A stretch of 16,371 bases of DNA from a virus, in UHGV virus genome UHGV-0104965; one strand, written 5' to 3'. How positions within the stretch are numbered: the stretch's first letter is position 1; each line of letters opens with the position of its first letter. The position numbers were made by a program, and so were the translations under genes. Below the pieces are notes generated by a model. That model was not told where the DNA came from. It ran no database searches and was given only the letters and a program-made list of their open reading frames with translations. Below, piece by piece: positions 2,142-15,199 of this stretch.

Positions 2142-3194
2142 TTATTCCCCTGCCAGCTGCCTTACCTCACTTACCGTCTGGTTGAAACGTTCCTCTTCCA
2201 GTTCTACGCCGATAGCCTGGCGGCCCAGTTCAATGGCTGCTTTAACAGTTGATCCCGAGCCCATAAAGAAATCAGCTACCACATCGCCGGGCCTGCTGCT
2301 GGCGTTGATGATTTGCCGCAACATATCAGCGGGCTTTTCGCACGGGTGTTTGCCTGGATAGAACTGGACTGGTTTATGGGTCCATACGTCCGTATATGGC
2401 ACGGCAGCTGTCACAGAGAAATGCCGCCGAAGTGATTTGTACTCTTCGAGCAGCTCTGAATATTTGCGATTCAACGAATGCCACAGAGCCACCAGCTGGT
2501 GGTGTGGTGTTGCCAGTTCGCCGTTCTGGTGCTTTTCGATGGCTACCTGCGTGAAAAGGGACTGAAGTTTCCGGTAGTCTGATTCATTCGGTAATTGCCA
2601 CTGGCTACCGCTGAACCAGTGAGACACCATGTTCTTCTTTCCAGTCGCATCGGCTATTTGTTTTGAGGATATGCCAAGCGCTTCACGTGCATCCCGGAAA
2701 TAAGATATTAGGGGAGTCATTACATGCTGCTTCAGCTCGCTTCCCTTCTCAGCGTACCCGTCGCTCTTTGGTTTATACGGCCCCTGGTAATGCTCAGCGA
2801 ACAGGATGCGTTCTGTTGCAGGGAAGTAAGAGCGCAGGCTCTCTTTATTACAGCCATTCCAGCGGCCCGACGGTTTAGCCCAGATGATGTGGTTCAGGAT
2901 GTTGAACCGCTCACGCATCATGATCTCAATGTCTGCCGCCAGGCGGTGACCGGAGAAAAGATAAAGACTGCCAGCAGGTTTAAGCACTCGCCAGAATTGT
3001 GCGAGGCACATATCAAGCCAGCGAAGATAATCCTCATCCCCTTTCCATTGATTGTCCCAGCCGTTGGGTTTCACTTTGAAGTACGGCGGATCCGTAACAA
3101 TAAGGTCAATGGTGTTATCTGGGAGGGTTGCGAGGTATAGCAGGCAGTCAGCGTTGACAAGCTCAACACTGTTTATATTTACAGTATTTTTCAT
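2142..3194 (-). CDS. DNA methyltransferase, beta-class (N6-adenine or N4-cytosine), orphan phage enzyme
   Basis: Motif IV TDPPY near the N-terminus and SAM-binding motif I FFMGSGST near the C-terminus (beta-class order: IV then I). 350 aa, no adjacent restriction endonuclease gene. Confidence 0.9.
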   Translation of the reverse strand: MKNTVNINSVELVNADCLLYLATLPDNTIDLIVTDPPYFKVKPNGWDNQWKGDEDYLRWLDMCLAQFWRVLKPAGSLYLFSGHRLAADIEIMMRERFNILNHIIWAKPSGRWNGCNKESLRSYFPATERILFAEHYQGPYKPKSDGYAEKGSELKQHVMTPLISYFRDAREALGISSKQIADATGKKNMVSHWFSGSQWQLPNESDYRKLQSLFTQVAIEKHQNGELATPHHQLVALWHSLNRKYSELLEEYKSLRRHFSVTAAVPYTDVWTHKPVQFYPGKHPCEKPADMLRQIINASSRPGDVVADFFMGSGSTVKAAIELGRQAIGVELEEERFNQTVSEVRQLAGE

Positions 3195-4617: not shown

Positions 4618-5331
4618 TCACATTTCCGCCACTTTCAGTTCTTGGTACTCTTCGTACCGTGACAAAATTTCGCTTAGTGCCTGGCTGTCCATCTCAGTAA
4701 ACGACGCTTTGAAAGCCGCCCAGTGGCATGAATACACTCTGAGCCAGGTGGAACGCTCAACGCTGACCATGCGCGCCAGCGCTGCACCAGCATACTCCTG
4801 ATAGGTATCGTTATTACGCGAGGCAGCAACTTCTTGCGCCGCCAGCCAGACAAGCCCTATCAGTTTTTTAGTGACACGGTCCTGGATTTTTTTGCCGCTA
4901 TGCTGACGCTGAAACTCTTCCCATACGAACTGGCACATTAACCTCTGGTACCGGAAAGCAAGGTCATGCCCATAGCAGTACCGCACCCATGCCTGCAAAT
5001 GCTCCCCAAGACCATTGACCGAACGACGCCATGCTGAACAAGCGAACTCCGCATCCTTAATAGGCGGTAAAGGTCTGCGACGGCTCCTTGTCTCAAGAAC
5101 ATAAAGTGGAGTGGCCATCGTTTTTACAACCTTGGATCCACAACCTTCCCCACCCTCCATGACGATTTCAGGATGGTGCCGGGGGTATTTGTTCTTATCT
5201 GCTGGTGGATGCTCACTGAACGCCTGCAGCTGTCCTTTTGTCGATCCTGATAAATCCGCCAGCGCGCGGCGCAGTTCAATCCGCGTATATTCCAGTTCTT
5301 GTAAATTCATTATGCTCAGCGCTCCATACAA
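4618..5331 (-). CDS. Putative late-gene antitermination protein Q (QuuQ/YdfT-like)
   Basis: 237-aa ORF directly downstream of the YdfU-like gene and upstream of a promoter-plus-terminator pair and the lysis cassette, the canonical Q position; this gene order and size match my recollection of ydfU-quuQ in E. coli Qin. No Cys4 zinc finger seen, so not lambda-Q type. Start may be the internal ATG at 5310 (MNLQELEY). Confidence 0.6.
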   Translation of the reverse strand: MYGALSIMNLQELEYTRIELRRALADLSGSTKGQLQAFSEHPPADKNKYPRHHPEIVMEGGEGCGSKVVKTMATPLYVLETRSRRRPLPPIKDAEFACSAWRRSVNGLGEHLQAWVRYCYGHDLAFRYQRLMCQFVWEEFQRQHSGKKIQDRVTKKLIGLVWLAAQEVAASRNNDTYQEYAGAALARMVSVERSTWLRVYSCHWAAFKASFTEMDSQALSEILSRYEEYQELKVAEM

Positions 5332-7096: not shown

Positions 7097-9034
7097 TCAG
7101 GCGGCTGCACCCGCCTTTTGATTTGCACATAATTCAGGAAGATTTGCTTCTACCAGCGCACGAGCGAACGGCGGCGGTACTGCGTTACCGCAGCGCGCTA
7201 CCTGCTTGTCTTTGGCGTAACGATTGCCGCGATAGTCCTGATCGATAACGTAGCCGTCAGGGAAGCCCTGCGCCTTATAAAGCTCATGCGGTTGCAGCAT
7301 GCGCATTCCGATATCGACGATCTGGTACTTAACCCCCTCGATCGTCACCAGCCATTCATCCTCGCTATCACCGCAGTAGGTTTCGAGGAATGTCCGGACC
7401 TCGCCAACGTGCTGGCCACCAGCGGTAATCGTCGGCATAGGTGTATCCATGGTCTGACCGTCGCGGCAGGTTCCGCGCAGCTTCACCAAGTGCGACGCAA
7501 CTACCGCGTGATGATCAACAGTAGTGACAGAGTGGGCAGGCTCATCCATACCAACACCCGGCCCCGTGTAATTCCCACCATAGTGCTTTGCCAGGAACGC
7601 GCTCACCGTTGCAAACTTATTACCACCAGCAGTGACCGTGCCGAGCGGGTTATTCAGTTGAAGAACACGCGGTTCTTGCCCTAGGCGTTCGCCGTACCCC
7701 ATCTGGATCAGTGTTGGAGTTACCAGCTGCGACTTACCGCCACCACCTGCAGTAATCGTCGCGCTCGGTTCGTCAGCCCTGTGCCCAACACTAGCGCCAA
7801 ACTGGCGGGCGATGACCGGCGCAACCACGCACGCGCGGGACTGCCTGAGGATTGTATGAGCGGGTTTATCCAGCGGGCGCGGCTTTGCCTGGTACTCACT
7901 GCCGCCATTGCCAGCCAGGAACGGTGTCAGGGCGGCCTCAACTACGCCAAGCGCATGCCCATTCCCGCCCGGACGCGCCGACGTACCAGCGGTGACAGTT
8001 GGTACCGGCTCGGTCACTGGCTGCCCGGTGGCCCCGGTGCGGAATTTAGTAAGATGCGGTACCGCCAGCGCGTAGCCATGCTTTTTAGTGATGGTCTGCA
8101 ATGGCTCTAACAACGATTGCCCGCGGAAACAGTCATAACCTCCTTTCGTCGTGGTGTGGTTACACTTCACGATGAAAGGTGATGCGCTTTCGATAACAAA
8201 GCGCTGGATGCCGCGCGCGATACGTTTGAGCGTATTTTCCGCCAGCGGCTTTTTGCGGTCGAAGATGGAACGGGCCGGAATGTTCCAGTCAATGCACTCC
8301 GCCGCGGTACGCCATGGCGCCAGCTTGCCGCTTTGTACTTCCAGTGATTTTGGATCCCCATGAGTCGCTTCAGGCCAATGAATCTTGCGGCCGTCACAGC
8401 GCATGACCATGAAGAAACGCCTTCTGATCGTCGGCGCGCCGTAGTCACAAGCGCGCAGCTCACGATAATCGACCTCATAACCAAGCCCGGCGATCAGCTG
8501 TTGAGCCTGCTGGCCGTGCGGCTCAATGGCAAGAAATTCACAAACCTCAGCCAGTGCTGGGTGATTCGCCGCGATCCCCGTCGACAGCATGCCGACAAAT
8601 GCCTCGAATGTTTCACCAGCACGCTCAGGATCCGGGCGTAATTCTTCATCCAGCAGCGGGCCCCATGTCTTAAATTCTTCGACGTTCTCCAGCATCATGA
8701 CTCGGGGACGTACTGCCAGCGCCCAGCGCAGAACAATCCACGCCAGCCCGCGAATCTCTTTCTTAACTGGCTTAGCGCCCTTCGCTTTGGAAAAGTGGCG
8801 GCAGTCAGGGCTAAACCAGGCCAAGCCGACAGGTTTACCGCTGGTGGCTGCGCTTGGGTCAACGTCAAACACCGACTCGCAATAATGCAGCGTGTCAGGG
8901 TGATTCGTCTTATGCATCGCAATAGCGTTTTCGTCGTGGTTGATAGCGATATCCACGCTACGCCCGATCGCCACTTCAATGCCGGTACTCGCGCCGCCGC
9001 CACCAGCAAAGTTATCAACGATAATTTCACGCAT
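7097..9034 (-). CDS. DNA (cytosine-5)-methyltransferase with enlarged, four-module target-recognition region
   Basis: ORF 7097..9088 (GTG) trimmed to ATG at 9034 (MREIIVDNFAGGGGASTG, motif I). Motif IV region SPDCRHFS, motif VI ENV, motif VIII RRR, C-terminal motifs IX (QGFPDGY) and X (CGNAVPPP). Between VIII and IX are four degenerate repeats of P-x-x-T-[VI]-T-A-G-G ... [FT]-L. Confidence 0.9.
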   Translation of the reverse strand: MREIIVDNFAGGGGASTGIEVAIGRSVDIAINHDENAIAMHKTNHPDTLHYCESVFDVDPSAATSGKPVGLAWFSPDCRHFSKAKGAKPVKKEIRGLAWIVLRWALAVRPRVMMLENVEEFKTWGPLLDEELRPDPERAGETFEAFVGMLSTGIAANHPALAEVCEFLAIEPHGQQAQQLIAGLGYEVDYRELRACDYGAPTIRRRFFMVMRCDGRKIHWPEATHGDPKSLEVQSGKLAPWRTAAECIDWNIPARSIFDRKKPLAENTLKRIARGIQRFVIESASPFIVKCNHTTTKGGYDCFRGQSLLEPLQTITKKHGYALAVPHLTKFRTGATGQPVTEPVPTVTAGTSARPGGNGHALGVVEAALTPFLAGNGGSEYQAKPRPLDKPAHTILRQSRACVVAPVIARQFGASVGHRADEPSATITAGGGGKSQLVTPTLIQMGYGERLGQEPRVLQLNNPLGTVTAGGNKFATVSAFLAKHYGGNYTGPGVGMDEPAHSVTTVDHHAVVASHLVKLRGTCRDGQTMDTPMPTITAGGQHVGEVRTFLETYCGDSEDEWLVTIEGVKYQIVDIGMRMLQPHELYKAQGFPDGYVIDQDYRGNRYAKDKQVARCGNAVPPPFARALVEANLPELCANQKAGAAA

Positions 9035-9926
9035 TGACGGCCCCCTGCATGCTGTTGAAGAGACCACCAGCGGTCGTGATAATTTCACTCATCGGCATAC
9101 GTTCGAGCCACAGCTGGTTGATATTGGCTTTCAGCTTGTTCTGCTGTGAAACAGGTAGAGCGTCAGCCCCTTCAATCTGGTTAAACACCAGGCCAACCTC
9201 AAGAGGCCAGATGCGCGACTCTGCATCAGGCGTTGCAATGGGAGCAGGCATTACATTTTCCGGCACCGACGGAAGGGCCAATTTTGCCGCGGCGAATTGA
9301 GCCAATGACAATGCGGCACGCCCTTTTTCTTCCAGTTCGGTGCGATTGATATAGCTGAATCTTTCACCACGCCAGGTTTTGTCAAAGACAGCGATTGCCC
9401 CGGCAAAAAATGCGCTGGTGGGTTGCTGCTTCTCGTCAGCGGGAACAAACCAAACAGGAAGATCGAACCCAATACGACCACGAATAAACATGATGTGATC
9501 GGCATCCTCCGGCCACCATGTTTCACTTGTGGCTGACTTCACGAGGTATATGTAACGACCACCTTGATCACGCATCGCCATTGTGTGATTCATGATGTGG
9601 GTCATGCCAGTGATGGCCTGCTTTTCATGGTACTGAGAACGGCTATATGGCGGATTTGCAAACGCGGCGCCACCGAGTTCTGCCAGACGCTCTGACCAGT
9701 CCTGCGTCAGCGCGTTATCTTCGGCGGTATACCATGCAGGGCATTTAGCATTGCTATCGTCTGCAAACAGATCCAGAACCATCGGCCCAAATATCGAATT
9801 GATGCCCCAAAACAACAAATCCGGAGTGCGCCACTGATCGCCAACCTCTTTCAATTCATGCGCTGGCTTTGAGCGCAGTTCAGCCAGCGCGCGGCAATAT
9901 TTGTTATCAGCATTCATGCTCATCAT
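9027..9926 (-). CDS. Phage DNA N6-adenine methyltransferase (phage Dam family) with about 100-aa C-terminal extension
   Basis: WRTPDLLFWGINSIFGPMVLDLFADDSNAKC...AFANPPYS: the W-x-T-P ... D-x-x-A ... NPPY pattern of the phage Dam family. ATG overlaps stop of the O-like gene (ATGA at 9923-9926). Confidence 0.9.
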   Translation of the reverse strand: MMSMNADNKYCRALAELRSKPAHELKEVGDQWRTPDLLFWGINSIFGPMVLDLFADDSNAKCPAWYTAEDNALTQDWSERLAELGGAAFANPPYSRSQYHEKQAITGMTHIMNHTMAMRDQGGRYIYLVKSATSETWWPEDADHIMFIRGRIGFDLPVWFVPADEKQQPTSAFFAGAIAVFDKTWRGERFSYINRTELEEKGRAALSLAQFAAAKLALPSVPENVMPAPIATPDAESRIWPLEVGLVFNQIEGADALPVSQQNKLKANINQLWLERMPMSEIITTAGGLFNSMQGAVNA

Positions 9927-10786
9927 TTCGCTCCCCTGAAGCCAGCTGGAATGGCTTTATCTGGTCCACCAAATTTCATCGGATCATGCTTACGGATTGA
10001 GCCCCAATACTGTCGTTCTGGACGTCCTGCTGCGTTCCACTTATTTGCGGATTGCAGGTAGCCTGGGAATTTTGTTGGCAGAAACAGCGTTGTTGGGCGC
10101 AGATATTCGGCCATTTTCAGATCCTCGCCCCACTTCTCGACGCTGTAATCCACCACCAACAGCAGCTCATCGGGCGTAAACCCGTCAGCCAAGCGAGCCC
10201 GGATGTTTTCCAAGGATGATTTGCAGACCTGATACCGTGATCCGGTGGTCTTGTTCAGATGTGATAAAACCTGCTTCGCCTGATCGGTGATAACCACCAC
10301 AGGGTCGGGTTGCGCAGCAACCGGACAAGAATGTTTTTTATCTGATGGATCAGTAGTTGTATTTACTGACGGATCCCCCCCAGATTCTGACTGGTGAAAA
10401 CCGCCTTTTTCATCGTTTTTTGATGCCTCAGATTTTGACGCGTCGGTTTTTGAGGCATCAGATTTTGATGCGTCAGAATCTGACAGGTGAGAAAAGGCAG
10501 CAGCCTGTAATTTCGCAACATTGAGCTGGTAAACGTTCGATGCATTGCGGTTGCCTTTACGGCGCTGCTGGCGGGTTAACCACCCGTCTTTTTCCAGTTG
10601 AGATATGGCTGTGCGAACCGTGCTCTCACCGGCACCAATCTGGCGCGCGATGGTAGCGATGGAAGGCCAGCTAACCCCTTCATCACTGCTGAAGTCTGCC
10701 AGACGCGCCATGATGGCAACGCTGGACAGCTTCATGCCAGAAGCGGCACAAGCGTCCCAAACGTAACCCGTTAATTTAGTGCTCAT
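9923..10786 (-). CDS. Replication initiator (lambda O-like function): N-terminal winged-HTH, repetitive linker, conserved phage C-terminal domain
   Basis: N-terminal HTH ...WPSIATIARQIGAGESTVRTAISQLEKDGWL; central low-complexity repeats SDSDASKSDASKTDASKSEASKND encoded by iteron-like DNA repeats; C-terminal domain ...VLSHLNKTTGSRYQ...ENIRARLADGFTPDELLLVVDYSVEKW typical of phage replication proteins. ATG at 10786. Confidence 0.85.
   Translation of the reverse strand: MSTKLTGYVWDACAASGMKLSSVAIMARLADFSSDEGVSWPSIATIARQIGAGESTVRTAISQLEKDGWLTRQQRRKGNRNASNVYQLNVAKLQAAAFSHLSDSDASKSDASKTDASKSEASKNDEKGGFHQSESGGDPSVNTTTDPSDKKHSCPVAAQPDPVVVITDQAKQVLSHLNKTTGSRYQVCKSSLENIRARLADGFTPDELLLVVDYSVEKWGEDLKMAEYLRPTTLFLPTKFPGYLQSANKWNAAGRPERQYWGSIRKHDPMKFGGPDKAIPAGFRGAK
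10325..10484. repeat. Candidate origin of replication: four iteron-like repeats plus adjacent AT-rich tract inside the initiator gene
   Basis: CAGATTCTGAC (10381), CAGATTTTGAC (10429), CAGATTTTGAT (10459), CAGAATCTGAC (10474); 23-bp direct repeats GATGCCTCAGATTTTGACGCGTC / GAGGCATCAGATTTTGATGCGTC 30 bp apart; AT-rich segment 10325-10375. Same layout as lambda ori within gene O. Confidence 0.55.
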
Positions 10787-10955
10787 GGTCGTCCTTTAAC
10801 TCTGTAAACTTGCGCTTGAATTGTTCGAGCGGGCTGAAACATTCGTGGTTATAACCATCCCGCAGGTAGATAACTCGTTGAGTCTCTGGCTCCCACCGGA
10901 TAACCCGAACGGGGATCCCTCTGCGGTCTTTGAACCTTCGGTTAACTTCGCGCAT
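10776..10955 (-). CDS. Small hypothetical protein (59 aa), unlisted, translationally coupled to the initiator gene
   Basis: Hand translation codon by codon: MREVNRRFKDRRGIPVRVIRWEPETQRVIYLRDGYNHECFSPLEQFKRKFTELKDDHEH. ATG at 10955 with AGGAAGG about 10 nt upstream; stop TAA (10776-10778) overlaps the initiator start by 11 nt. Preferred over the composition-poor 126-aa ORF 10796..11176 in another frame. Confidence 0.5.
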   Translation of the reverse strand: MREVNRRFKDRRGIPVRVIRWEPETQRVIYLRDGYNHECFSPLEQFKRKFTELKDDHEH

Positions 10956-11127
10956 AAGCGTTTCGCCTTCCTGTAGTAAACCCCCACAATTGCGACCGCC
11001 CGACTGTGGTTACATGGCACCCAGCGGTTTGCTATTCTGCGTTCATACCGAAACAACGGAGCGCCCGGTACCGGGATCATCCTGAGTTGCGGCAAACGGT
11101 TAAAAGCCGTTAAACTGGTCATGCGGA

Positions 11128-11733
11128 TTACTTCTCCATACAAGATTTGTCTGCCACGACGCCCGGAGCTGCACACTCGCGGGCGTCACTCTTTTCCGGC
11201 GCACAAAACACACGGAAAAGCAGCGTCAAATGTTCCTGCCACTTAGCCATCACCTGATAGCTGTTCTCTTCGATCTGGGTGCGTTCCTGAGCATCAATAA
11301 CGCCGTCAGCGGTAGCTTTACGAACGTATTGTGAATGCCTGCCGATCCACTCAACTGACTCCATGAGACGCTGGTTGATATCGCCGTTCTCAATCTCTTC
11401 AACATCAGCCAATGGCACAAAAACACCGTTCGAGTGACGTGCAATAGCGTTCGCTATGTGGTTTGAACCACCAGCACGTTGAAGCACCATCGCCCAACCG
11501 AGCGGGAAGATCTGATCGCCATCGGTACGCAGCCGGTTAAACAGCGCGTTCTCGGTCACACCCAACCACTCAGCAGCTTCTGAATATCCGCCAGGCAGCT
11601 CGGTGATCGTTTTTTTGATTGCGGCCACCAGCCAGGCTGGCTGCTTATCTACTTTCCATTCAGGTTCTATACCCACGGCTAGGTCCTCCCTTCTGTGGTT
11701 ATTTCTGATCGTTAGGCGATGTATTCTTGCCAT
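11128..11733 (-). CDS. CII-like lysogeny-establishment regulator (phage 186 CII / YdaT-like family)
   Basis: Position immediately downstream of cro-like gene; HTH-like segment YSEAAEWLGVTENALFNRLRTDGDQIFPLGWAMVL resembles the phage 186 CII pattern. ORF 11128..11760 begins with GTG; first ATG at 11733. Start uncertain (no clear SD); overlaps cro-like gene end. Confidence 0.6.
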   Translation of the reverse strand: MARIHRLTIRNNHRREDLAVGIEPEWKVDKQPAWLVAAIKKTITELPGGYSEAAEWLGVTENALFNRLRTDGDQIFPLGWAMVLQRAGGSNHIANAIARHSNGVFVPLADVEEIENGDINQRLMESVEWIGRHSQYVRKATADGVIDAQERTQIEENSYQVMAKWQEHLTLLFRVFCAPEKSDARECAAPGVVADKSCMEK

Positions 11734-11914
11734 AACGTTCTGGGTTGAATTCCAGTTCACCAGCAGTTCGATACGCAGCTTCAGCAGCTCGTCCTTTAGG
11801 GATTAAGCGTCCGGGGCGATTACGCCACTGGTAAACGGCCTCACTGGTGATGCCAAAAAATTCGGCAACTTTCTCAGTGCTGCCGAAATGTTGTTCAATC
11901 TCGTCGGTTGTCAT
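11699..11914 (-). CDS. Cro-like repressor (YdaS/Cro-type HTH)
   Basis: 71 aa with HTH STEKVAEFFGITSEAVYQWRNRPGRLIP; strong AGGAGG SD (11919-11924) before ATG at 11914; divergent from the CI-type repressor across an operator-rich region. Confidence 0.8.
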   Translation of the reverse strand: MTTDEIEQHFGSTEKVAEFFGITSEAVYQWRNRPGRLIPKGRAAEAAYRTAGELEFNPERYGKNTSPNDQK

Positions 11915-12013: not shown

Positions 12014-12640
12014 ATGGAAACGGTTGGTCAGCGCATTAAAGCCCTACGCAGGGTTACAAAAACCTCTCAAAAAGAACTGGGTAAGTTCTGCGGGGTTAGT
12101 GACGTAGCGGTGGGTTATTGGGAAAAGGATGTGAATATCCCTAACGGAGAATCGCTGGTTAAGCTGGCTAAATTCTTCAATACATCAATAAATTACATTC
12201 TTTACGGCACTGAATTTGAAGGTACCCTCATAACTAAAATGAGGCGTGTGCCCGTGATTTCCTGGGTTCAAGCTGGGCAGTTTACGGAATGTAAGGCCGC
12301 TGATTTATTCAGTGATGTTGATAAATGGGTTGAAACATCACTACGCATTGGGGATAGCTCGTTCGCTTTAGAGGTCAAAGGGGATTCAATGACCAATCCA
12401 AATGGCCTCCCAACAATCCCTGAAGGGGCAACCGTTATTGTTGATCCAGATGCCGAACCCCTTCATGGCAAGATTGTTGTTGCGCGTATTGATGGCACTA
12501 ACGAAGCGACTGTTAAAAAACTGGTCATTGATGGCCCACAAAAATTTTTAGTCCCACTAAATCCTCGCTACCCCAACCTCCCGATCAATGGTAACTGCCT
12601 CATTATTGGCGTAGTTAAAGGCGTTCAGTACGAACTCTAA
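12014..12640 (+). CDS. CI-type prophage repressor (N-terminal XRE HTH, C-terminal S24 LexA-like peptidase)
   Basis: HTH QKELGKFCGVSDVAVGYWEKDVNIPNGESLVKLAKFF; C-terminal autocleavage domain with Ser in GDSM and Lys in VKKLV; divergent from cro-like gene. Confidence 0.95.
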   Translation: METVGQRIKALRRVTKTSQKELGKFCGVSDVAVGYWEKDVNIPNGESLVKLAKFFNTSINYILYGTEFEGTLITKMRRVPVISWVQAGQFTECKAADLFSDVDKWVETSLRIGDSSFALEVKGDSMTNPNGLPTIPEGATVIVDPDAEPLHGKIVVARIDGTNEATVKKLVIDGPQKFLVPLNPRYPNLPINGNCLIIGVVKGVQYEL

Positions 12641-13076: not shown

Positions 13077-13105
13077 TGCCCATCACATCGGTGGGCACCT
13101 TTTTT
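13077..13105 (+). terminator. Candidate intrinsic terminator in the PL leader
   Basis: TGCCCA(13077-13082)-9 nt loop-TGGGCA(13092-13097) followed by CC and TTTTTT (13100-13105). Moderate stem; lies about 380 nt downstream of PL and about 165 nt upstream of the first clear early-left gene. Confidence 0.4.
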
Positions 13106-13268: not shown

Positions 13269-13640
13269 ATGAGTAGTGACCGCATGACCGTAGTGCCCGA
13301 TTTCCTGGGCGAACTGGATGCCGGCGTGTTCATGAACAAGATCGCGGCAGCTTTAAACACTACCGCGCTTGGCGTTCTGAATAACGGTACCAAAGGCAAA
13401 GTAGTCCTTACCTTTGATATTGAGCGTATGGGTAACTCCGTCGAAGAGAAGCGCGTCAAGATCAAGCACAAGCTGAACTACGTCACCCCAACCCCGCGCG
13501 GTAAAGCCTCCGAAGAAGACACCACCGAAACACCAATGTGGGTTAACAAAGGCGGCAAGCTGACCATCCTGCAGGAAGATCAGGGGCAGCTGTTCGGGAT
13601 CAACGGCGGCGTTGACGGAAAGCTTAAAGCGGCACAGTGA
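13269..13640 (+). CDS. Hypothetical early-left protein (123 aa)
   Basis: ATG at 13269 with GAGGG SD 8 nt upstream; protein-like composition; first convincing gene downstream of PL. No family recognised. Confidence 0.8.
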   Translation: MSSDRMTVVPDFLGELDAGVFMNKIAAALNTTALGVLNNGTKGKVVLTFDIERMGNSVEEKRVKIKHKLNYVTPTPRGKASEEDTTETPMWVNKGGKLTILQEDQGQLFGINGGVDGKLKAAQ

Positions 13641-13693
13641 TCCGCAGCAGACAAATCACTGATATCCCTTTGACCAAATATTAAGGAAATTTT

Positions 13694-14524
13694 ATGTCCC
13701 AGATTTTAGACGGTAATGCCCTGCAGCAGGTGAAAGACCTGGTTCTTTCCGGTTACCACCTGGATGCAGCAAAAGTTACGGCATGCCCGACTGCCCTGCT
13801 TCCTGAAGGGGTTCACGTAGAAAGCCTCGAGCGTTTCGAGCTGGAGCGTTTTCGCTTCCGTGGCGCCATGACCACAACCAGTATTCCTGACTTTGTGCGT
13901 TATGCAGCTGGCTATGCCAACGAAGCTGAACCAGCGCGATGCTTTATCGATGCTGACAACATGACCGCACGCTCCGTGTTCAATATCGGTACTCTGGCTA
14001 ACCCTGGCCATGCTGATAACGTCGCATCTATCACTCTCAAAAAGACAGCGCCATTCCGAGCCCTACTTCAGGTAAATGGCGATCGACTGAGCCAGAAGGA
14101 AATTGCTGAATGGCTGGAGGACTGGGCCGACTTCCTGAGCGCATTTGATGCCGACGGGAATGTGTTGTCCATCGCGCAGGCAGCTGGTGCCGTTCGTCGC
14201 GTCAATATCAAACAAGTCTCGGAAGCAGCTCATGAAGACGAAGATTTTGGCGGCAGAAAGTCCCTGATGCAGAGCGTTGAAGCCAGCAGTAAAGACGTGA
14301 TGCCTGTCGCCTTCGAATTCAAATGCCTGCCATATGAAGGCCTGGGCGAACGCCGCTTTAGCCTGCGTAACAGCCTGCTTAAAAGCGGGGAACCGGTGTT
14401 TGTACTCCGCATCGTTCAACTGGAAGCCCAGGAAGAAGCTATCGCCAACGAGTTCCGTGACCTGCTGATCGAGAAGTTCACCGACAAGTCGGTTGAAACC
14501 TTTATCGGTAACTTTAAAGCGTAA
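13694..14524 (+). CDS. YfdQ-like phage protein (DUF2303-type, by recollection)
   Basis: 276 aa, AAGGAA SD before ATG; size and gene order (followed by an HD-domain protein) match the yfdQ-yfdR pair of E. coli CPS-53 as I recall it; not verified by search. Confidence 0.9.
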   Translation: MSQILDGNALQQVKDLVLSGYHLDAAKVTACPTALLPEGVHVESLERFELERFRFRGAMTTTSIPDFVRYAAGYANEAEPARCFIDADNMTARSVFNIGTLANPGHADNVASITLKKTAPFRALLQVNGDRLSQKEIAEWLEDWADFLSAFDADGNVLSIAQAAGAVRRVNIKQVSEAAHEDEDFGGRKSLMQSVEASSKDVMPVAFEFKCLPYEGLGERRFSLRNSLLKSGEPVFVLRIVQLEAQEEAIANEFRDLLIEKFTDKSVETFIGNFKA

Positions 14525-14536
14525 TTTCTCTGCATT

Positions 14537-14560
14537 AAATCCCCGGCGCCGCGGGGATTT
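14537..14560 (+). other. Intergenic GC-rich hairpin (possible weak terminator/attenuator)
   Basis: AAATCCCCG-gcgccg-CGGGGATTT, 9-bp stem, followed by ATTTATT; between the YfdQ-like and HD-domain genes. Confidence 0.35.
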
Positions 14561-14659
14561 ATTGAAGCGCAATTCCCTTTATTAATCGCCAATGGCGAGG
14601 GATTCGTACAACCAAAAACTGGCGCAGGTGCAGCTGCCAAATATGGAGAAGAAAATACG

Positions 14660-15199
14660 ATGAGTTATATCCAGACACTTTCAGGTAAGAAATTTGATTA
14701 CCTCAATTCAACCACTGACGACGTAGAGATCGAGGATATTGCGACCGCACTTTCCCACATCTGCCGCTTCAGTGGTCATCTGCCGGAATTTTACAGCGTG
14801 GCCCAGCACTCGGTACTGTGCAGCCAAATTGTGCCGCCAGAGTTTGCCTTTGAAGCCCTGATGCATGACGCAGCTGAAGCCTATTGCCAGGACATCCCAG
14901 CCCCCCTGAAAGCATTGCTTCCAGATTACCGTCGCATTGAAGAGCGGGTAGAACAGCTGATCCGGGCCAAATTCAGCATCACCCCTGATATGTCAGCGGT
15001 AGTGAAATACGCCGATCTGGTGATGCTTGCCACGGAACGCCGCGATCTGGATATCGACGACGGCTCACTCTGGCCTTGCCTCGAAGGTATTCCGGCCAGC
15101 GACATTATCCAGATCGTCCCTCTTCGCCCAGGCCAGGCATATGGCTTGTTCATTAACCGTTTCAATGAGCTTATGGAATCACGCGCATGCCTCGCATGA
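14660..15199 (+). CDS. HD-domain phosphohydrolase (YfdR-like 5'-deoxynucleotidase family)
   Basis: Metal-binding residues in SVAQHSV and LMHDAAEAY (HD motif); 179 aa; GGAGAA SD before ATG at 14660. Confidence 0.9.
   Translation: MSYIQTLSGKKFDYLNSTTDDVEIEDIATALSHICRFSGHLPEFYSVAQHSVLCSQIVPPEFAFEALMHDAAEAYCQDIPAPLKALLPDYRRIEERVEQLIRAKFSITPDMSAVVKYADLVMLATERRDLDIDDGSLWPCLEGIPASDIIQIVPLRPGQAYGLFINRFNELMESRACLA

Follow-up and report, generated by a model that had tools for sequence, protein, structure and literature searches.

Where does a lambdoid prophage begin to replicate its DNA if no helicase-loader gene follows its initiator gene? This question is raised by a stretch of 16,371 nucleotides from the virus genome UHGV-0104965 (the window, by which we mean this whole stretch at its full length). 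It covers the early genes of a lambdoid prophage, with rightward early transcription on the − strand, and an earlier note on this DNA had proposed that repeats and an AT-rich tract at 10325-10484, inside the initiator gene, form a candidate origin mirroring that of lambda. Here, we report a computational follow-up. The repeats and the AT-rich tract were confirmed where the note had placed them, although the conserved element reaches slightly further, to ~10304-10489, and this segment is very probably the vegetative replication origin of the prophage, lying where its own initiator gene encodes the linker. The locus is defined by two features:

9923-10786, − strand: initiator gene, 287 residues (from the list of open reading frames, ORFs, and translation)
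~10304-10489: whole conserved DNA element and candidate origin, codons 100-161 (from the codon alignment)

The repeats are not random. The motif given in the note, CAGAWWYTGAY, has five matches at four places (10381, 10429, 10459 and 10472/10474), all within 10381-10484, where 0.14 are expected; five matches were reached in none of 200 shuffles. A broader palindrome pattern produced seven strand-matches at four sites against an expectation of 0.24, and this was also equalled in 0 of 200 shuffles. Tandem Repeats Finder reported a 15-bp period with four copies at 10418-10477 and a 30-bp period with 2.1 copies and 87% matches at 10413-10474, while a repeat search bore out the inverted pair (10381-10400 / 10463-10482) and the pair of 23-nt direct repeats described earlier. 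The four strong sites thus stand, and the unit itself has been refined: the core, TCARAWTYTGR, is palindromic and 11 bp long and recurs on a 15-bp register, and there are two degenerate sites in addition to the four strong ones between 10380 and 10483. Both TCAGAnTCTGA and TCAAAnTTTGA are 5-N-5 palindromes with dyad symmetry (sequence logo from 405 units). From the promoter-proximal end, the sites are:

10473-10483: iteron 1, TCAGATTCTGA on the coding strand, a perfect 5-N-5 palindrome
10458-10468: iteron 2, TCAAAATCTGA, the commonest core of the family (117 of 405 units)
10443-10453: degenerate unit, TCAAAAACCGA, on the 15-bp register (read from the sequence)
10428-10438: iteron 3, TCAAAATCTGA
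10413-10423: degenerate unit, TCAAAAAACGA, on the 15-bp register (read from the sequence)
10380-10399: distal iteron, TCAGAATCTGG (core 10380-10390), with its conserved 5' flank TTTCACCAG

As the note had stated, the array lies inside the initiator coding sequence. The strong and degenerate sites span codons 102-136 of 287, between the N- and C-terminal domains, and this region of ORF 9923-10786 (−) encodes the inter-domain linker SDSDASKSDASKTDASKSEASKND. Read along the coding strand, the sequence of the array is TCA GAT TCT GAC / GCA TCA AAA TCT GAT / GCC TCA AAA ACC GAC / GCG TCA AAA TCT GAG / GCA TCA AAA AAC GAT, which is translated as SDSD-ASKSD-ASKTD-ASKSE-ASKND. The distal iteron is 48 bp from iteron 3 and 15 bp ahead of the first of two GATC boxes, and the 22-nt unit that it forms with its flank is the repeated element in one relative (L083). 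The window contains no match to the iteron motif outside the array. Among sequenced phages, Escherichia phage LLS is the closest; it is temperate and viable, was isolated on E. coli K-12 and has the same order of genes. In its complete 42.9-kb genome the motif occurs solely at the four corresponding sites inside the 'O family' gene. There is thus no alternative iteron cluster in the window or in the LLS genome. Nor is the array of the plasmid type known from the RepA/pi/TrfA class, with direct iterons of 17-22 bp at about helical-repeat spacing and usually DnaA boxes alongside, as the units here are palindromic, 11 bp long and set on a 15-bp register.

Repeats within a coding region may, of course, have no role at the DNA level. 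They could be a slippage-prone, low-complexity linker of DASKS pentapeptides, and the likeness between relatives could come from ancestry or from recent recombination at a module junction. The linker that they encode is indeed hydrophilic and probably disordered, its copy number changes by whole 15- or 30-bp units as slippage predicts, and the segment sits at the junction where C-terminal domains are exchanged. To weigh this, we took 15 homologous genes found in phages and E. coli genomes and added 80 loci from one-per-species Enterobacterales genomes; the codon alignment comprised 89 distinct sequences, and statistics of codon choice were restricted to residues with at least 60% conservation among them. 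In the N-terminal domain (residues 1-97) the normalised codon entropy averaged 0.81 and the top-codon fraction 0.52, so synonymous sites there are near saturation. For linker codons 100-161, in contrast, the corresponding values were 0.24 and 0.90 (Mann-Whitney p = 4e-15 versus the N-terminal domain), and synonymous sites are nearly invariant across the same genera. Linker serines are encoded by TCA in 83/83, 79/80 and 86/87 sequences and lysines by AAA in 60/60, 63/63 and 75/75, while Asp138 is GAT in 89/89, Val141 is GTA in 84/84 and Cys154 is TGT in 65/65. Compared pairwise with the window, identical residues use the same codon in 32-61% of cases in the N-terminal domain and in 71-92% in the linker.

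The pattern of this conservation is also informative. It is periodic, with fixed cores of 11-12 nt and variable 3-nt spacers (third position of the spacer A 27, C 10, G 58 and T 5%), a pattern that is not expected if the segment had recently been swept through the family by recombination. Within the cores, third codon positions (the A of TCA, 96%; the T of TCT, 100%) exceed some first and second positions (A/G 57/42, C/T 86/12), the opposite of the pattern that protein constraint would leave. The residue changes in the linker are radical (Ser/Phe, Lys/Glu, Asp/Val and Ser/Pro), yet each is a single base within the motif (TCT/TTT for Ser/Phe and AAA/GAA for Lys/Glu), such that the amino acids shift while the DNA is kept. 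With synonymous sites almost invariant and spacers variable, selection on the DNA is indicated, and slippage of a linker without a DNA-level role is extremely improbable. Judged from this alignment, ~10304-10489 is a cis-acting DNA element that is also translated.

Synonymous constraint can have another source, namely a second reading frame or a structured RNA. Two overlapping ORFs are candidates, one of 60 residues at 10363-10545 (−), in the +1 frame to the initiator, and one of 55 residues at 10357-10524 (+). In the window neither is interrupted within the array, most homologues likewise have no stop codon in the +1 frame there (median 57 codons), and the single-strand fold is far more stable than those of shuffles (z = −5.1). 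However, open frames are unsurprising in a stop-poor repeat: of 88 homologues, 49 have an ATG-initiated +1 ORF of at least 40 residues and 52 have the reverse-frame ORF, whereas the constraint is universal and extends ~60 bp beyond the +1 stop codon, to codon 161. The overlapping ORFs were rejected, as their frames are open in ~55-60% of homologues and the constraint outruns their stops. We also rejected an RNA element: the stability of the fold follows trivially from the palindromic repeats, whose variable number speaks against one defined fold, and no Rfam match was found in the window. A source in either kind of overlapping information is, all told, very improbable. An internal promoter was likewise discarded as an explanation, since no sigma-70-like promoter is predicted in 9800-11300.

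The constrained segment is larger than the iterons. Beyond the distal iteron it continues through an AT-rich block to a short palindrome:

10364-10375: GATC box 1, GATCCGTCAGTA, a Dam site plus an iteron-like half-site; the most invariant stretch of the element
10340-10351: GATC box 2, GATCCATCAGAT, 24 bp after box 1
10330-10369: AT-rich tract, A-rich on the coding strand, 72.5% AT (best 40-bp window), candidate unwinding element
10308-10322: short palindrome GGTTGC-TGC-GCAACC at the promoter-distal edge of the element (read from the sequence)

The AT-rich stretch reported in the earlier note is real but modest, with 67% AT over 10325-10372; its duplex stability is ~2.5 standard deviations under the window mean (30-45-bp windows). 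More conspicuous are the two boxes in this part of the element, with the consensus GATCCRTCA. Per-nucleotide conservation of box 1 is 0.85-1.00, with most positions at 0.93 or above, across all 89 sequences, divergent subfamilies included. Among 88 homologues analysed, 79 have at least two GATC sites, and in 71 of these the boxes are 24 bp apart. GATC density is 24.6 per kb in the 90-bp block against 3.3 per kb over the rest of the initiator genes, a 7.5-fold difference. The boxes also keep step with the iterons: in 71 of 78 genes, exactly 15 bp separate the distal site, which has a conserved flank (TTTCACCNNCAGAATCTGG), from the first GATCC that follows it. The edge palindrome has a 7-1-7 version in LLS and a closely related one in phage mEp390.

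The protein encoded around this element has the following parts:

residues 23-70: N-terminal winged-helix domain HTH_36 (PF13730; Pfam)
10496-10786, − strand: coding region of the N-terminal domain, residues 1-97 (HTH_36/GntR/MarR/DnaD_N matches)
residues ~100-161: repeat linker
residues 173-245: C-terminal domain Phg_2220_C (PF09524; Pfam E-value 2e-22, 79.5 bits versus a cutoff of 27)

Its identity as a replication initiator, asserted in the earlier note, is borne out by the combination of HTH_36 and Phg_2220_C, by matches to PHROG families annotated as 'primosomal protein', 'replication initiation protein' and 'replication initiation O-like', and by its C-terminal domain, which is 34% identical to G38P of phage SPP1 (BLASTP E-value 7e-14); G38P itself matches PF09524. 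G38P is an experimentally established origin-binding replisome organiser, and oriL, consisting of AB boxes and an AT-rich unwinding element, lies in its gene 38 (PMC5737612). Homology of the C-terminal domain to a proven origin-binding protein with an origin in its own gene supports assigning the same function to the element described here. The N-terminal domain, which is presumed to be the reader of the iterons, has a DnaD_N match below the Pfam threshold, and a sequence search of the PDB with the initiator returned merely generic winged-helix regulators (E-value ≥ 0.02). No match to PF04492 (Phage_rep_O) was obtained on the initiator at E ≤ 0.01, although lambda O and P22 gp18 do match this family, and the BLASTP comparison with P22 gp18 was not significant (E-value 0.07). 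The likeness to lambda suggested in the note therefore holds for the layout, that is, linker repeats followed by an A-rich tract, and not for the DNA-binding domain, which belongs to PF13730 rather than PF04492; the lambda origin is mirrored in architecture and not by homology of that domain.

If the repeats are sites for the N-terminal domain, the two should travel together, and the family bears this out. All 320 strong sites in 80 main-family genes fall within the linker, with 0-7 per gene, mostly 4-5 (3-9 units under a looser pattern). Their spacings are quantised, with values of 15, 30 and 45 bp inside the array, while the distal site follows at 48, 63 or 78 bp. In two E. coli loci, L010 (ECONIH4) and L014 (ECONIH6), the linker is exactly 30 bp, or two 15-bp units, longer than in near-identical relatives, which means that iteron copy number is polymorphic within E. 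coli. The N-terminal half of the initiator is 99% identical in protein sequence to that of an Enterobacter wuhouensis prophage, and residues 1-161, comprising N-terminal domain and linker, share ~80% identity with 'O proteins' that end in different C-terminal domains, namely those of SfII and of several phages of Klebsiella and E. coli. In 23 of the collected genes this N-terminal part is joined to a lambda-O-type C-terminal domain (30-47% identity to lambda O). By these comparisons the N-terminal domain and linker are one module, which travels onto G38P-type or lambda-O-type C-terminal domains.

Where the N-terminal domain changes, the repeats change as well. Divergent subfamilies have an altered recognition-helix region, for example KSKTTVSAAI for GESTVRTAI, and other 11-bp palindromes (TCAAATATTGA or TCAAnnnTTGA), while the 15-bp register and the GATCCGTCA boxes are kept. 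A simple rule linking the recognition helix to single bases was tried and abandoned: Arg58 to Ser goes with TCTGA to TTTGA in one subfamily, but the relative L007 combines Arg with TTTGA. In gp42 of phage mEp390 (L004), a Phg_2220_C domain like the one here is preceded by an unrelated N-terminal domain, and the linker repeats differ. Across 74 related loci, the downstream gene is a lambda P homologue in six and a DnaC/IstB-like AAA+ gene in one, and among the 23 lambda-O-type relatives five (L084 and L087-L090) have a lambda P gene directly next. Module linkage, repeats matched to the N-terminal domain and loader neighbours are what would be expected of an origin-recognition domain that moves with its origin.

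Three observations on relatives may be added. The mEp390 gene carries, at 2480-2640 of L004, three to four CGCGAAAGTACGGAATC-like repeats of ~17-24 nt followed by an AT-rich tract with 12-bp repeats and by a palindrome related to the GGTTGC...GCAACC of the window; this is probably another undescribed intragenic origin. In L092 (E. coli ECDA1023), at 2501-2737, the first 79 residues of the N-terminal domain are fused in frame to an unrelated 456-residue ORF and there are no iterons, which may be a decayed replication gene like ymfN of e14. In a plasmid collection, most matches came from prophages residing on megaplasmids or mis-assigned chromosomes, and the initiator gene is not clearly the only replicon of any small plasmid there.

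How the element could work as an origin can be outlined from these parts. Upon induction, rightward early transcription, which is on the − strand here, would yield the initiator. Its N-terminal winged-helix domain, probably as a dimer, would bind the TCARAWTYTGR palindromes at four strong and two weak sites, and the resulting nucleoprotein array would stress the neighbouring A-rich tract with its two GATCCRTCA boxes until the tract opens. The Phg_2220_C domain of the SPP1 G38P family would then recruit the replicative helicase. This is expected to be host DnaB, presumably with DnaC, because no phage helicase or loader gene is present: a domain search of the 18 other ORFs scanned in the window found no helicase or loader domain, in agreement with the earlier note, and no such gene is annotated across the whole LLS genome. 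Binding, unwinding, helicase recruitment and origin activity are all steps that we infer from the sequence.

Several points weigh against this assignment. The first concerns geometry: the 15-bp centre-to-centre spacing of the palindromes is tighter than the 20-24 bp of lambda and would place adjacent sites on almost opposite faces of the helix. The second is the AT-rich tract, which at 72.5% is weaker than those of lambda and P22 (80% in the best 40-bp window) and is not the least stable DNA of the window. There is no DnaA box near the element, the sole match in the window lying far off at 13102, and a DnaA-dependent origin was accordingly rejected. The helicase-recruitment step lacks a phage-encoded partner, as no loader gene is present, and conservation of the DNA alone establishes a cis element and not an origin. 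Lastly, literature searches for TCAAAATCTGA, GATCCGTCAGTAAA and related strings returned unrelated papers only and no paper describing these repeats, and searches of the SfII and SfV replication literature found no description of this origin.

Some of these points are shared by a further explanation, in which the array does bind the initiator but in a role other than that of the origin: autoregulation, a transcriptional roadblock, control of copy number by titration or handcuffing, or a secondary, late site like oriR of SPP1, with the true origin elsewhere. Conservation establishes a cis element but not its function, the AT-rich tract is merely moderate, and SPP1 G38P provides a precedent, since it also binds oriR, which is not the primary origin (PMC5737612; PMC3485210). 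Nevertheless, neither the window nor the whole LLS genome has a second cluster of the motif, the order of iterons, A-rich tract and palindrome is that of functional lambdoid origins, and the block of GATC boxes and AT-rich DNA is co-conserved with the iterons at a fixed 15-bp offset. We consider such a non-origin role improbable, and the vegetative origin at ~10304-10489 remains the preferred assignment.

For a vegetative origin at this place, two conserved features may bear on its mechanism. The first is the Dam sites. Among 133 ORFs in the two positions downstream of the initiator at 74 loci, 42 have an adenine-methylase domain (Dam 33, MT-A70 6 and D12 3), and with such domains this frequent a link to the conserved GATC boxes is conceivable. 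The Dam-type methylase encoded next to the initiator may be functionally tied to the boxes, and the origin may thus be sensitive to methylation. A methylation-gated phage origin, if true, would be comparable in principle to the control of oriC by Dam and SeqA; the GATC-containing heptamer repeats of the P1 plasmid origin may offer a parallel. The second is a tail at the C-terminus of the initiator, ...(D/E)Y(S)x(I/L/V)P(A/E)GFR(G/S), or IPxGFRG, encoded at 9923-9955 of the window in the last ~11 codons. It ends 57 of 90 homologues, on Phg_2220_C and lambda-O-type C-terminal domains alike, and is found in 0 of 7 initiators whose next gene is lambda P or a DnaC-like loader; in modules without a loader, a host replication protein may dock at this motif. 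Taken together, a loader-less, or 'solo', lambdoid replicon can be pictured, in which the IPxGFRG tail would recruit host DnaB/DnaC directly and the GATCCRTCA boxes would make firing depend on the downstream adenine methylase, together replacing the role of lambda P; we regard this combined scheme as rather unlikely. 'Initiator-solo' modules, with an initiator gene, an internal origin and no cognate helicase or loader, were reportedly described by Weigel and Seitz (FEMS Microbiol Rev 2006), and the present locus, whose loader-less layout corresponds to theirs, may belong among them.

The surroundings of the initiator are those of a lambdoid early region:

12014-12640, + strand: cI-like repressor gene
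11699-11914, − strand: cro
11128-11760, − strand: cII-like gene
10776-10955, − strand: DUF4222 ORF, 59 residues (Pfam E-value 4e-18; phrog_1343 E-value 5e-32)
9027-9926, − strand: Dam-type N6-adenine methylase gene (Pfam PF05869 E-value 3.6e-45; TIGR01712)
7097-9088, − strand: C5-cytosine methylase gene, unusually long (663 residues)
4618-5331: Q, reached beyond the C5 methylase gene after an antirepressor gene and a DUF968 gene

The Dam-type gene overlaps the stop codon of the initiator and sits where a loader gene would be; it and the C5-cytosine gene are the two methyltransferase genes that the earlier note had placed after the initiator. Its position next to the initiator is, with the conserved GATC boxes and the lack of a loader, among the less usual traits of this locus. 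With a further gene at 2142-3194, of the N6_N4 type with an inserted helix–turn–helix, the 16-kb window holds three DNA methyltransferase genes (2142-3194, 7097-9088 and 9027-9926), all on the − strand. Upstream of the initiator, the DUF4222 ORF (10776-10955, −) is nested wholly in a 126-residue ORF in another frame (10796-11176, −; phrog_1170 E-value 3e-15). The annotations disagree, with the short ORF in RefSeq and the long one in the LLS record, and the overlap is either true nested coding or one annotation artefact. On the other side of the repressor gene, the leftward early genes at 13269-15199 (+) resemble yfdP/yfdQ/yfdR of the CPS-53 prophage of E. coli K-12 and include DUF2303 at 13694-14524 and a YfbR-like HD-domain protein at 14660-15199. 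According to one report, the YfdR protein of K-12 binds DnaA, and yfdQRST, when overexpressed, inhibit initiation at oriC (PMC4776307). Through genes of this kind, host replication proteins could become available to a phage origin without a loader.

With the element assigned in this way, an origin is located with good confidence for widespread, unstudied enterobacterial prophage replicons related to E. coli KplE1/CPS-53, e14, SfII, LLS and the Nissle prophages, together with a defined 11-bp recognition motif and a 190-bp segment. The element would also exemplify dual constraint, where the needs of binding sites shape the repeats of a protein linker, with third codon positions fixed while amino acids drift. 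One origin-recognition unit appears to work with a G38P-type or a lambda-O-type C-terminal domain, and with or without a phage loader, and helicase recruitment in loader-less phages becomes experimentally approachable. The motif could further aid the annotation of origins and help to predict which prophages in one host exclude one another or are incompatible in replication.

For lambda, the placement of iterons within the initiator gene is textbook knowledge, and the layout here follows the same plan. In lambda they lie mid-gene in the linker, at codons 117-144 of 299 compared with 102-136 of 287 here, and in both cases iterons with dyad symmetry are followed by a tract that is A-rich on the coding strand and then by a palindrome. 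The differences are equally distinct: lambda has four 18-bp iterons 20-24 bp apart rather than 11-bp cores on a 15-bp register, whereas the present locus has a G38P-type C-terminal domain, no P gene, a weaker AT tract and GATC boxes conserved within that tract. With SPP1, in which a 356-bp oriL fragment is sufficient for replication in vitro (PMC5737612), the locus shares the PF09524 C-terminal domain and the placement of repeats and an AT-rich element in the organiser's own gene. However, the N-terminal domains have no detectable similarity, SPP1 is a lytic phage of a Gram-positive host, and its own loader G39P and helicase G40P are encoded directly downstream, neither of which was found among the window ORFs scanned or is annotated in LLS. 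In P22, a rep_origin is annotated at 32840-32984 inside gene 18, and in phage L an origin was proposed by inspection from six 11-bp repeats inside gene 18 (PMC8022706); the length of the repeat core equals that found here, although the sequences are unrelated. The gp18 N-terminal domain belongs to PF04492, and a DnaB-type helicase gene (gene 12) comes directly after gene 18. These gene 18 repeats show that each lambdoid initiator type has its own iterons in the coding region. The element at ~10304-10489 would thus be a further member of the intragenic origins in the style of lambda, P22 and SPP1, a principle already known, and would be set apart within this group by the lack of a loader gene, an HTH_36 reader, an 11-bp palindrome on a pentapeptide register, invariant GATC boxes and a G38P-type C-terminal domain in a lambdoid phage of Gram-negative bacteria.

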